From: Macrostomum lignano
Lineage: Eukaryota
Length of the DNA: 64,000 nucleotides
Direction: 5' to 3'
NCBI GenBank assembly: GCA_002269645.1
Contig: NIVC01000302.1
Location: 378,303-442,302, forward strand
Within the stretch, counting starts at the first letter, position 1, and the number at the start of each line of letters is the position of its first letter. Below the pieces are notes generated by a model. The model worked only from the letters and a program-made list of their open reading frames with translations, ran no database searches and had not been told where the DNA came from. Position numbers and translations under genes: made by a program. Positions 41,099-46,440 of this stretch are shown piece after piece.

Positions 41099-41899
41099 CT
41101 AGGCCTGGTCGACGCACCGATCTCGGGCCACTTGAATCAGCGGCCAGATCAGCCTATCAACAATTGAGCCAACGTTGCAAGCATAAGCGCAGGCGGGGGC
41201 CAATTCAACAACGCTATCGCTGCTATTAGACGATGAAGCTGTTGCTTTCTGATTACTTTTGGGTTGCTGCTGCTGCTCAAACTCTCGCTGCTCCTCTTCG
41301 AACAGCAGGCGAGGCAGCGCCACCACGCCTGCGGCATTCTCGGCAGCGGACACGGCGGTGGCGGCGGCGGCATCCGGAGAGGTGGCGCAGTGCGGCGGCC
41401 GGACTCGCATAGGTATGTAGGCGCACGAGCCGCGGACATTTTGAAAGCACAGGGCCTGGCAACGCTGGCCCCGTTCATGACCGCTATAGACGGCGAATAT
41501 TAATCCTACAAATGATTCGGCCAGCTGCTGGTAGCTCAGCTGAGTAGCCAGATCTACATGGCTGGGCAGGGCTGTGATGTGCGGATGGCTGTGGTACCAG
41601 CCAACTACACGGACAGTGCGGCCCAGCTGAGCTGTGAGCTCATCGGCCCGCTGGGTGGCCGCAACCAGCTGGTCTGGCTCAATTTCAACTCGATCTTTGC
41701 GCTTGTCAACTCGCAGCAGCGGCAAAAAGGCCAGGATTTCCAAATTGACGCCGCCAACAGCATCGCCAGCCGCTGATTGCAGCTCTTCGCCAAGGCAAAG
41801 GCCCATGATCTCTTCATTCTCGGTGACCATGGCGTGAGTCAGGCAGCCCCAATAGGCCACCCAGTCAAGGGACACCCGGTCTACCACTGGTAGATGAGA
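41099..41899 (-). CDS. BRCC3: BRCC36 K63-specific JAMM/MPN+ deubiquitinase; single coding exon with no genomic ATG before the conserved N-terminus
   Basis: CLTHAMVTENEEIMGLCLGE, VEIEPDQL, RVVGWYHSHPHITALPSHVDL (HxHx7Sx2D), FVGLIF. The ORF-track start at 41887 is GTG; the start given here is the in-frame acceptor at 41899. Confidence 0.92.
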   Translation of the reverse strand, partial: SHLPVVDRVSLDWVAYWGCLTHAMVTENEEIMGLCLGEELQSAAGDAVGGVNLEILAFLPLLRVDKRKDRVEIEPDQLVAATQRADELTAQLGRTVRVVGWYHSHPHITALPSHVDLATQLSYQQLAESFVGLIFAVYSGHERGQRCQALCFQNVRGSCAYIPMRVRPPHCATSPDAAAATAVSAAENAAGVVALPRLLFEEEQREFEQQQQPKSNQKATASSSNSSDSVVELAPACAYACNVGSIVDRLIWPLIQVARDRCVDQA

Positions 41900-44460
41900 C
41901 TGCAGAGTTTTGAAAGATTTTAGTGAGTGCCAGTTGTCTGAGTGATTTTCAAATTCATAAACATCAGCATAGCCATACTTATATTTACAAAAACATGTTT
42001 ACAAAAAACTTCATGCATAACACCATACACTTAATAAATAACATAAATAACACATACAAGCACAAGTGTCTGTGTAAAACAAACAAAAACCAAAAATGTG
42101 AAACAAATAACATCAATAGATTTTATCTTTACAACTATACTAAATTCTTGTTATTGTTTTTTGTTTCCTATTTTTAACGCTTTTCAGTGTTTAGCAAATA
42201 AAAAAATAATAAGATTATATAGAAAAGTACAAAAAAACTCACAACTCAACAAACATTAATAAATTATTTTGATTACATTGTTAATGTCTGTTTAGACCAC
42301 ATTTAGCACATACTGAGATTTAATTTTTTCAGTTTTAATCAATTTCATTGAATAATTTTTGATTTATAAAGAAGAATGAGTTCTTTAATAATAAAGAACA
42401 TTGAAGACCATGAACTTGACAAAGACAGTGACAATGATTCAAGTCAATTGAGTGGGAGTGATTCAGACTGTCACTCCAGTCACTCCAGTGTAGGCAGGCA
42501 GACACAGTGCTACTGCTACTGCGAGTGATAGCGCTAGTGCTATTGGTACTTTTGCTCCTAAGCCCATACATCTTTGACTAGATATTTGCAACTAATAGAT
42601 TAAAACTACGAGTGTAGGCCTTCCCAAAGAACCCATTTCTGATTTGCCAACTTTGTCTTCCAGGAATTCAAAGTCTAAATCCTATTAATACCCATATCTC
42701 TTCATTGCAAAATTTAAGTAAGCATATTAAGTCAAATATCCAAGTAGTTTCTCAAAGGTAAGCAAGCATTTCTGTTACTTACTTATTATGTAACATAATA
42801 CATTTTCATACATTTATAATTTATATTTATTAAATTATTAATTAAAAGCTAAGATGTGAGAAAATAAAAGGAATTAATTTTAAAGAAGGCTTAGGTGAAA
42901 AATATTAATATTTAATAAACAAGAAGCATTATAACATTATATTAATACTAATTTACTCTATACTTATAGAATCTATATAAGCATCTGTAATAAATGGAAT
43001 CTATATTATATAGATCATATAGAAACACTAAAGGGCTAAAGGCTATATTATTTAATTAGTACATTAAAGTTTTCATTTTTAGGAATATAATTTTAACATA
43101 AAATTTCATACAAGAAATCTAAACATATACCAATGCAATCCAATGCCATAATCTAGTGAAAATAATGATAATTGATTTAAATGTACCAACAAATAAGGTC
43201 ATTATTTAGTTTATTTTAAATTGTTTTCATATAACCTACAATTTGATGGATATTAAACAAAATCTCAAAAACTTACTTAGTATCTTAACATAAGTGAGTA
43301 AAGTGACTAAAATTGAAACATGATTGCAATTTCTTTTGATAATATAAATATACTTACTAATACCAATGCTAATTTTCAGTTTGAATTTCAAAGCAAGGCC
43401 AAGCCTAAACATAATAATGATAGTTCCAAATCAACCAACTGCAATACTAATCTGCTATCCAAGACCAAGACTGATTCTAAAACTGGTATAGCAGCTTCAG
43501 CTTTAGCTAGTGCTAGTGTTGAATTGCCCTTGCCTACAGCTATAGCCATGACCACTATATCAACCTCAACTATTGTTATTCAATCTATTCAGCTATTGTT
43601 CCTACAACTCCTGCAGGATCTATTTAAACTTTGAGGCCTGGATAGTCTCTTAGTCAACCTAGTGGTCCCAGTTATACTCTTACTCAGGCTGAGGCTACTC
43701 CTAGATGTTTATCTGTGCATGTATTATCTAGCCCCTTATGGAAGCACCAGCACCAATCAATTCTACCACAAACAGTGGCCACTATAGTGCAATGTTCTGG
43801 CATACTGTGTTCTGGAAGAGGTGGTAAAGCAAATTATAAATGTTGTGGTTAAAAACATACTATAATTCCAGGTAATTGAATCTACATCTATTTGTCCACC
43901 TTTTCAAGACACTAAACTCAAATAAAGTGGTGCCATCCTGCTAGACATTAGGCCAAAGAATTTTGAAATATTATCAAGGTGGAATGCAGCCTCAGCATCT
44001 ACCTACAACTAGCAATGCTTGATGTTCACATATAAGCACCATTTTTAATTGCTATTAACAATTGACATTAGCCAGTTGCATATGTACCAATAGGAGAGGA
44101 GAAGTGACCACCTCTGCTTTGTATTTGTGGTCTTAATTTGACAATTCATGAGGTACCAATTGAGTAAACTTGTGTACCTTGGCTAGTTGATGCAAGTGAG
44201 GGCAATCATTTGATAGTCTACCCAAAGGACTTGCACTAACTTGCATGTGGTTTGTTAGGGGTCAGCCTCAATTAGTATATGCAAGTGGTCATTATCCACC
44301 TTAGAAGGATATCCTGTGTGGTAGCATGGGTCTGCTCAGTTGCTCCACTCAGTGTAATGTACAATGCAGGTGTATACCTGCACGCGCATGTGTGATTGGC
44401 TTACACTTTGTCAGACAACCTTTATTGTTGGCCAGCTATATTAAATACTAGCTCTCTGCC

Positions 44461-44590
44461 TTTGGGGGGGGGGTCTTACCCCCGAAGTGGAGTTTTCACA
44501 GTGGCGACAAGGATAGGATTCAAACCCACGCGGGGAAACCCCAATGGATTAGTATTTGGGGGGTCTTACCCCCGAAGTGGAGTTTTCACA
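44461..44590 (+). mobile_element. LTR-end-like direct repeats (44461-44500, 44555-44590) around an extended primer-binding site complementary to tRNA-Ser(GCU) (44502-44554)
   Basis: ...ttttcaca g tggcgacaaggataggattc...; the reverse complement reads anticodon loop, Ser variable arm ggggtttcccc, T arm, acceptor ccttgtc-g-CCA. Confidence 0.75.
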
Positions 44591-45409
44591 TCCTGACTAG
44601 GGCAAATATTCAAGGCTGAAATCTCCTTAGTGAAACTAAGCAAACCAATCTTGTTCAGTGCATTTAGACACAGTACTAGCACCAAATGCACTGGTAATGT
44701 GGTAGCTTGATTTAGCTGCTTTGAGTCCAGTTTGAAGTTGTTGATTAATAGCCATGAATATTGGGTTAAGAGAAATCCATATAGTTAATCTGGCTTTGAT
44801 AGCAATAATCATGAAAAGTAGATCACACATACCCACTTTCAATATATACCCACATAGTAAGCTTTTAGAATGTTCTAGAATTGAATTTTCTAAAAACTAC
44901 AAAACATTCTTGACAACTAAATAATACCTTGCTTGGCATAGGGTTTCCTAGACTATAAATATAGACTTTCCTCAGCTTTCCTTTTATCAGAGTCTTAAAT
45001 TAGCATTTCCTTTATTTTTCAAGTTTATAATTGTCTATTATTTATATTTTTTATCTCAAACCTAGACCAGAACTAGAGTCTAAAGGTTGTAGTTGTAGCC
45101 TAGGGAGTTGTAGCCTAATGTATATTGTTAGACTTAAGAATTGAAAATTAGGGGTTTAATTCTTGATCTTTTCAGAACAATTTGTGTCCTTGAGCAAGAC
45201 ACTTAACTTTGGATTAATTTAGTTTACCTAGTTATAAAATTGGTATTAGCATTAGCTGGGGTAATTGAGGATATATGTAGCAATCCCTTAATCTTTTGAC
45301 TAAATAGCCATATGCAGCATTCAGATGTATTGTACAATAGCTATAGCTAAGCTATCAGTTGTACATTTATAAATATAATCAATTTTTATTATTTATTATT
45401 ACTAGATCT

Positions 45410-46440
45410 CTACTAGCAATCTACACCCCCGTTGGGGAGCCAAAGAAATGCAATACACATTATTTTAATAAGCTATATGTATCCTTGAAATCTTATCTTA
45501 AAAAATCTCTTGTCAAACCTTGTAGGCCTTGACATGTCAGTAATTCCCCCCAGAAGCTTTAACATATCAACTTCCCCCTTGACATCTCAGCAATGCCCCC
45601 AATAAGCCTTGGAAATTAAAAAATCTGTCAACCTTCTAACCCTAACCCTAGCCTAAGCCTAAGCCTAAGCCTAACCCTAACCCTAAAGCATTGACATTTC
45701 AGTAATTCTCTCTAAGAGTCATTATAGCACTGCTACAGCATTATAGTGATTCCCTGCAAGCCTTAATATCGTAGGGATTCCCAAATGAATCTCTTAACTT
45801 TGACATGAAGCTTCTTTTATTTTTTACATTACACTTTTTTTATCAGCGATCCCTCCCCTAAGGAGGCATCAAATAATGTAATAAAAAGTTTTCAATAAAC
45901 TACATGTAGCTTCTGACTTTAGCTTTGAAATCTCAATTATACCCTTGTAAGCCTTGACATCTCAGCTATTCCCCCTGTAAGCCTTGACATGTCAGCGATG
46001 GCCTCCATAAACCTTGAAATCTGAAAAATCCCCCGTTAACCTTGAAACCCGATAAAATATAACCCTCAACCCACACCTGAACTAAACCTAACTTTAACCC
46101 AACCTAAAGCCTTGAATCTCAGCAATTCTTCTCCCCTAAGCCTTGACATTTTAGTGATTCCTTCTTTAAGAATCATAGCACTATAATGATTCCCTCCAAG
46201 CTTTGACATTGTAGCAATTCCCAAATGAATCTTTTAACTTCGATATGACTTTTCTTTTATGTATACATAGTGCTACTTTTATTTTTTACATGACTCTTCT
46301 TCTATCAGCGACCCCCCCCCATGGCGAGCCAACAAAGAATGTAATAAAAAAATTGAGTAAAGTAAATGAACTTTGAAGTAGCTTCTGACTTTTGCTTTGA
46401 CATCTCAGAAACGCCCCTATAATCTCAGTTATTCTCTGTG
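45410..46440. repeat. Two diverged ~450-bp direct copies containing ccttgacat subrepeats and a telomere-like (TAACCC/TAAGCC)n tract at 45636-45686
   Basis: Blocks ~45520-45900 and ~45950-46400 align; a possible Helitron-like a|CTAG plus hairpin end lies near 45412. Confidence 0.65.

Follow-up and report, generated by a model that had tools for sequence, protein, structure and literature searches.

We have characterized a single 274-bp insertion (44317-44590) in the window, by which we mean the whole 64,000-nucleotide stretch of Macrostomum lignano DNA analysed here. The insertion consists of a whole LTR, one G, the complement of a tRNA and a repeat of the LTR end. Taken as a whole, it is best explained, in our view with good probability, by a plus strand that overran its primer site, stopped likely just before a modified C32 of the primer tRNA, jumped to the LTR end and was integrated. 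That overrun, template switch and integration produced the insertion is highly likely, and it is an even question whether m3C32 caused the stop in this copy. The broader proposal, that the genome keeps a record of tRNA modification, has strong support, which comes from loci other than this insertion.

Results

Structure of the insertion

The features of the locus are listed in Table 1. The original prediction had placed the feature at 44461..44590; its right end holds, but the start moves to 44317, where the whole LTR begins, and the 5-bp target duplication had been missed. The first LTR copy ends in ...TTTTCACA at 44500, followed by one G and then by the tRNA complement. The predicted order of a tRNA-Ser(GCU) complement with CCA after the LTR end, followed by an LTR-end repeat, was confirmed against the tRNA-Ser(GCU) genes of the species, and the whole 184-bp LTR and the 5' LTRs of the family show that the flanking repeat is indeed an LTR terminus. 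A 23-base core of this repeat occurs twice in the window, with no matches in 100 shuffles, and the G run is shorter in the second copy than in the first. A purine tract precedes the 3' LTRs of the family and is absent before the LTR of the insertion.

Table 1. Features of the insertion and its target site (window positions; TSD, target-site duplication)
Position	Strand	Feature	Remarks
44312-44316	+	Left TSD copy, TCCTG	5 bp; no polypurine tract before the adjoining LTR
44317-44500	+	Complete Ty3/Gypsy-family LTR, 184 bp, TG...CA	Family comparison
44501	+	G spacer, 1 base	Identical in 21/21 family 5' LTR-PBS junctions
44502-44552	+	Complement of mature tRNA-Ser(GCU) positions 76 to 35, including CCA	Gene alignment
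44553-44554	+	TA: mismatch opposite G34, match opposite U33	Gene alignment
44555-44590	+	Last 36 nt of LTR, second copy (U5 end); supplies the right-hand CA end	Repeat comparison
44591-44595	+	Right TSD copy, TCCTG	5 bp; homologues lacking the insertion
44596-44920	.	Older interspersed repeat hosting the insertion, right part; resumes left of 44312	40 candidates scored, 69-83% identity

Nine homologues of the host repeat were examined, seven of which aligned across the site, and all seven show the target once and without the insertion. No duplicate of the window's own locus was found, and these homologues were used as the empty sites. Together with the target duplication, they suggest that the 274 bp entered as one piece with integrase-type ends. 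Assembled contigs of public runs (4 of 24 listed) span the left host-LTR junction in X1, X4 and X6, from three studies. The LTR-tRNA junction is spanned by contigs of X1 only, which may be the assembly's own source. At the right junction, the contig pieces extend just 27-30 bases into the repeat, below the 31-base rule, and the tRNA-U5 junction is unbridged among the pieces listed (213 further pieces exist). A bin of zero depth in X6 and X11 was given no weight.

The surroundings of the locus hold dense, unrelated minisatellite arrays (12000-47300; periods 18-61 and longer), and the region 42000-45600 is strongly CpG-poor, with an observed/expected ratio of 0.12. On the minus strand, an apparently intronless open frame of 299 codons (41099-41998) has Pfam JAB/MPN and weak BRCC36 C-terminal matches.

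The tRNA copy

The tRNA part carries three transitions of the C-to-T type, at tRNA positions 69, 63 and 56 (44509, 44515 and 44522). The base opposite A58 (44520) is the correct T, and the copy is without any signature misincorporation; it stops short of position 32 and therefore gives no reading of C32. A 53-nt match to exactly U33 had been claimed. U33 does match, but under our neutral score rule, with G34 mismatched, the match ends at 35 (51 nt); an end at 33 (53 nt) requires that the mismatch at 34 be later decay. Across the LTR and the tRNA part, C:G to T:A changes are present at 7 of the 26 CpG sites and at 3 of the 95 remaining C/G sites. Because such non-CpG changes occur in the insertion, a later C-to-T change at 44553 is plausible, and 44553-44554 are likely the final two copied tRNA bases, one of them changed later. 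Considering this plausible decay and the ends at 33 in three other events described below, we are fairly sure that the copy reached position 33.

The complement of CCA indicates that a mature tRNA served as the template. A pattern from the tRNA part was found at 22 places in the genome, 14 of which were called tRNA-Ser(GCU) genes by ARAGORN, and none of these 14 has CCA directly 3'. On the 64-kb window, ARAGORN found no tRNA and Rfam gave sub-threshold matches only, both as expected for a partial copy. The tRNA-U5 junction shows no notable microhomology, and at least two shared or near-shared bases are present at five of the six other junctions for which a normal sibling is available.

As direct repeats flank the tRNA piece, it could also be supposed that a LINE enzyme put a 3' tRNA fragment into a solo LTR, the 36-nt repeat being its target duplication; tRNA retropseudogenes with duplications of 8-35 nt do exist (PMC5322556). 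This reading needs the family's own primer, the exact LTR end, the orientation of the primer site and the family's G spacer all at once. Moreover, tailless retropseudogenes lack the 3' end, whereas the window copy lacks the 5' end, and 13 other events share the left junction while their right partners differ. CCA-ended tRNA-Ser(GCU) copies away from LTR ends numbered 0 of 8 such loci. Accordingly, we regard a LINE insertion as very improbable.

The LTR family and the parent element

A search with 171 bases of the feature gave 83 candidates; among the 40 matches scored, the only full-length one was the window itself, and many were paired, 3.5-4.4 kb apart. The other family loci (n = 29) comprise 21 5' LTRs and 8 3' or solo LTRs. 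The parent element (L068) has a single frame of 1312 aa with the Pfam order protease-RT-RNase H-integrase, and paired TG...CA LTRs, a tRNA primer site, a purine tract and a short target duplication mark it as Ty3/Gypsy. The 5-bp target duplication could be tested in six elements of the family, of which four were perfect, one had one mismatch and one failed; two further solo-like LTRs are without it. The Mag clade rows of PMC3286476 fit the parent family in element size, 180-bp LTR, Ser primer and 5-bp duplication, which makes it a candidate member of that clade.

All 21 family 5' LTRs carry the G and a 10-nt primer site. The primer sites at other copies of the LTR end, a check proposed in the original prediction, are thus 10 nt long, and the 51-53-nt segment is private to the window locus, a single-copy insertion within the 40 candidates scored per DNA search. 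The prediction had also taken about 18 nt as a normal primer-site copy, which does not apply here: the family site is 10 nt, and in such families 18 nt is already an overshoot.

These results bear on membership in a TRIM or tRNA-derived SINE family that always carries the tRNA segment. Its layout would be LTR, primer site, short internal part and LTR end, as seen here, and one sibling event (L089) is indeed ordered LTR-tRNA-PPT-LTR. On the other hand, only one copy was found (40 scored candidates per search), the 21 sibling 5' LTRs stay at 10 nt, the PPT is lacking and the second LTR amounts to just 36 nt, so that this reading is hardly credible. As regards classification, TRIM/Helenus membership was rejected, as two complete LTRs with PBS and PPT and a shared multi-copy segment are both absent. 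Assignment as a tRNA-derived SINE or a tailless retropseudogene was likewise rejected, the 5' half being absent and CCA kept.

Over its 184 bp, the LTR of the insertion carries 7-8 substitutions relative to the closest single copies, almost all of them C:G to T:A, and is therefore older than the intact members. Deleted members of the family also exist, with LTR pairs 1.7 and 3.5 kb apart versus the usual 4.2-4.4 kb. Time was therefore available for a later deletion, in which a long tRNA copy would have been inserted with internal sequence, and the stretch from the tRNA copy to the U5 of the 3' LTR lost afterwards; positions 33-35 would then be a breakpoint. However, a young event (L188), with identical LTRs and a perfect target duplication, likewise ends at 33, and the breakpoint must coincide by chance with the commonest stop. 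We consider a later deletion unlikely.

Primer-site lengths across the genome

The LTR end with a 10-nt site occurs at 397 places in the genome, versus 13 for the reversed control. In the first 30 of the 397 sites, the exact match extends over 10 nt (15 sites), 11 (5), 12 (3), 15 (4) or 18 (3), with none at 16-17. A search for the 18-nt complement returned 56 places, which with the window make 57 long-site loci. Forty-nine of them, which form 23 groups when sorted by LTR and junction, have ends at 17-20 nt, and the other eight (7 events) at 43-81 nt, with none between 20 and 43. This length pattern indicates that an overshoot usually runs to 18 nt, the base just before A58, and that the window copy is a rarer long one.

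Most multi-copy groups among the long-site loci are duplicated loci with flanks in common; the few groups whose flanks differ may have propagated. Among the 18-nt sites, one junction recurs at differing insertion sites in L084, L095, L104 and L115, in L077, L105, L117 and L123, and in L090 and L112. The overrun site may have become heritable in those 18-nt lineages, or it may be native to them. Several 18-nt copies have siblings with a short primer site, and in one family all nine sampled 5' LTRs are at 10 nt, with 18-20, 49 and 53 nt in three other copies. Where a normal sibling is available, the tail re-enters the element at a distance of a few up to hundreds of bases, frequently where a short stretch is shared.

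Fourteen read-throughs and the modification signature

A general T-arm/CCA/LTR pattern gave 63 matches, compared with 16 in the reversed control, and 43 loci were inspected; GC-rich coding and other non-tRNA matches were removed by eye, and tRNA-Glu-like matches were left out. The primers recovered with this pattern were Ser(AGA/TGA/CGA) and Leu(AAG), and their genes were compared. Under one neutral alignment rule, with duplicated loci collapsed by shared flanks or junctions, we obtained 14 independent Ser and Leu read-throughs, including one Leu event only. Terminal mismatches (C208 A34G, C2171 C32T and window G34A) were excluded from the counts.

Relative to the tRNA genes, 17 of 24 covered A58, A34, C32 and G26 sites are changed versus 6 of 745 other positions (three of the six belonging to the window copy), counts in which the search patterns, with a wildcard at 58 and strict around it, favour changes at 58 and lower the background nearby. 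A58 is changed in 9 of 14 events (to T in five, G in three and C in one), A34 to G in all three covering events, C32 in three of the four crossing it (T, T and A) and G26 to A in two of three covering events. At positions 34-22, outside all search patterns, the changes number 8 of 10 at signature sites versus 0 of 48 at others (P 2e-8). When the published site list 9/20/26/32/34/37/58 is used regardless of base, 17 of 44 sites are changed versus 6 of 725 elsewhere, and in the seven events found after the hypothesis was formed the counts are 11 of 14 signature sites and 2 of 360 elsewhere. Variants of the tRNA genes were rejected as the source of the changed bases: none was present among the genes displayed, which comprised 14 for Ser(GCU), 16 for other Ser tRNAs and 13 for Leu.

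Reverse transcriptase misreads modified tRNA at the sites changed here, and errors at 26, 32, 34 and 58 report modifications (PMC8062790). In fission yeast, mouse and human, m3C32 is described on all tRNA-Ser and is read mostly as T, and Ser(GCU) also carries t6A37 (PMC4986895). By analogy, the signature sites may correspond to m1A58, I34, m3C32 and m2,2G26. The overrun copies thus likely preserve a DNA record of primer-tRNA modification as a genome-wide set. For the genomic record that had been predicted from the window alone, the strong support comes from the other loci, but the window copy itself has A58 unchanged.

The last matched positions of the 14 events are 33, 33, 33, 35, 35, 36, 37, 39, 28, 28, 23, 22 and 5, with one in the variable arm. 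Because the ends scatter over the anticodon loop, C32 is not the sole stop. Cleavage of tRNA in the anticodon loop into halves is an established process. Such halves are named in PMC7472051. Accordingly, the primer may have been a 3' tRNA half from which the enzyme ran off at 33-35 and jumped, with no need for a stall at a modified base; the scattered ends at 33-39 in 8 of 14 events fit this, and the window copy gives no C32 reading that would speak against it. In contrast, synthesis reached position 28 or went past it in 5 of 14 events, so that intact primers were used there, C32 is changed in most of the events that cross it, and two ends at 28 lie close before G26. Three ends fall exactly at 33 in two different tRNAs; if ends were spread evenly over 67 sites, P would be about 0.001. 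On balance, a cleaved primer appears doubtful, although less so than a later deletion, and overrun on an intact primer is preferred.

Individual sibling events

The best single witness is L184 (G000:C114:891305-895826), a young element in which the two LTRs are identical and the primer copy, 81 nt long, has signature changes at 58, 32 and 26. In L187:1043-1125 (G000:C2171), the tRNA copy ends at 33 and gives way to the end of another LTR, which has a 10-nt primer site of its own and gag, possibly a jump between two element families. Overrun primer copies are joined to antisense pol in L191, L185 and L192, and L191 has two LTR ends whose primer sites stand face to face. L089 and L059 each show an LTR, a 58-nt tRNA copy, a purine tract and an LTR, a miniature TRIM-like element from one step; L059 duplicates L089 apart from a 1-nt gap.

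L189 (G000:C330:361737-361799), like L039 and L041, holds tRNA-Ser(GCU) from position 58 to position 1 and lacks the 3'-terminal 18 nt. This copy, present at three duplicated loci, has primer polarity, lies near the end of the integrase region and carries C32T and G26A. It likely arose when synthesis jumped to the piece of tRNA that RNase H had left behind; TTCGAA at the entry is shared with the T loop. L189 was left out of the 14 as an internal copy without CCA, in which the shared TTCGAA makes the change at 58 ambiguous.

L319 (G000:C393:302763-303548) and G000:C2548:18114-18900 are 28-bp tandem satellites with a unit like the 3' end of tRNA-Leu and a C at the A58 position. L239, L252, L304, L230, L305 and L298 are tRNA-Glu-like and CCA-ended, followed by G/T-TG, and may be genes, decayed copies or further read-throughs.

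Discussion

The insertion combines the LTR, the spacer and the CCA-end complement of the family's own primer in one run, and its tRNA copy is 51-53 nt long versus 10 nt in all 21 siblings. We propose that plus-strand synthesis from the purine tract would copy the LTR, the spacer and then the tRNA primer. In short-PBS families, the plus-strand strong-stop DNA would run past the 10-nt site to A58 and so acquire an unpaired tail, and a minority of plus strands would read beyond A58. Such a tailed end would be unable to finish normal strand transfer and would prime elsewhere, on gag, the PPT, U5 or the opposite strand. In the window copy, A58 would have been passed with the correct base, being either unmodified or read correctly, and synthesis would have come to a stop within the anticodon loop, the most likely point being just before C32. 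The tail would then have jumped to the minus-strand U5, 36 nt from its end, a landing that would restore the CA end after completion, so that integrase could insert the product. As to the acceptor, the DNA fold of the U5 end favours neither a full minus strand nor mutual priming with a 36-nt abortive minus strand.

The original prediction of an aberrant plus strand that passed 58, stalled at C32 and switched template thus keeps its overrun and switch as the best reading. We put the m3C32 stall at no more than even chances in the window copy because no misincorporation is present, the end is at 33 or 35, and a cleaved half or a deletion would give an identical junction.

We think it rather likely that genomes rich in short-PBS Gypsy elements are a readable and datable archive of primer-tRNA modification, written in vivo by the reverse transcriptases of these elements. 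The overshoot, at about 1 in 10 of the sampled primer sites, would then also regularly give rise to deleted, inverted and chimeric elements, and the window copy would be its smallest integrated product. If so, an assembly with enough such elements would by itself reveal the tRNA modifications of a non-model animal, and LTR divergence would date them. There would also be in vivo evidence that, in elements with a primer site shorter than 18 nt, the plus strand runs to A58 or beyond, and that the unpaired tail is rescued by a template jump into rearranged copies. The window locus itself is dead scrap, and its value lies in being an entry point to this class of overruns.

Faulty plus-strand transfer that leaves primer tRNA beside an LTR, with deletions, was reportedly described by Colicelli and Goff in 1986 and by Pulsinelli and Temin in 1991. 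That work is said to concern a few cell-culture clones of vectors or circles, with no genome survey of modification sites. The literature searched yielded no description of inherited copies in which misread bases persist at several sites of modification; older virology and subscription literature lay outside this search, and a precedent may exist.

In HIV-1, the plus strand is described as stopping mainly at m1A58 (18 nt), with minor products to the anticodon loop (PMC13191261; PMC11251516). The over-extended products P3-P5 resemble the present case in this main stop before m1A58 and minor anticodon-loop read-through. The long HIV-1 product, seen in reactions and cells, is called non-productive there, whereas here such products are integrated and inherited; in addition, the primer site here has 10 nt, long ends fall most often at 33 and not at 37, and misread bases are kept. 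In Ty1/Ty3, the first plus strand is a dead end: it takes in 12 nt of tRNA sequence and is then discarded (PMC5371799). These are likewise short-PBS elements whose first plus strand copies tRNA beyond the inherited part, but here 18 nt is the mode among overruns, copies of 40-81 nt occur and they are fixed in the genome.

Among other elements, cqgypsy_1 of Culex quinquefasciatus also has CCA-ended tRNA at the primer site, between 26-nt 5' LTR duplicates. It differs in having two whole tRNAs head to head, read by its authors as a Twin-SINE-like insert, and is reported without a modification analysis (PMC3286476). Helenus TRIMs similarly tie tRNA-derived sequence to a retroelement, but their tRNA lies inside both LTRs and they form families (PMC10886601), and tailless retropseudogenes are tRNA-derived and linked to retroelements, but are 3'-truncated LINE products (PMC5322556). 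In mim-tRNAseq, reverse-transcription errors likewise report modifications, although as a bench method (PMC8062790), whereas here it was likely retrotransposon enzymes that introduced the errors in vivo, and the genome stores them. In these copies we see an already known type of reverse-transcription error that has become fixed in a germline and is numerous enough to map tRNA modifications.
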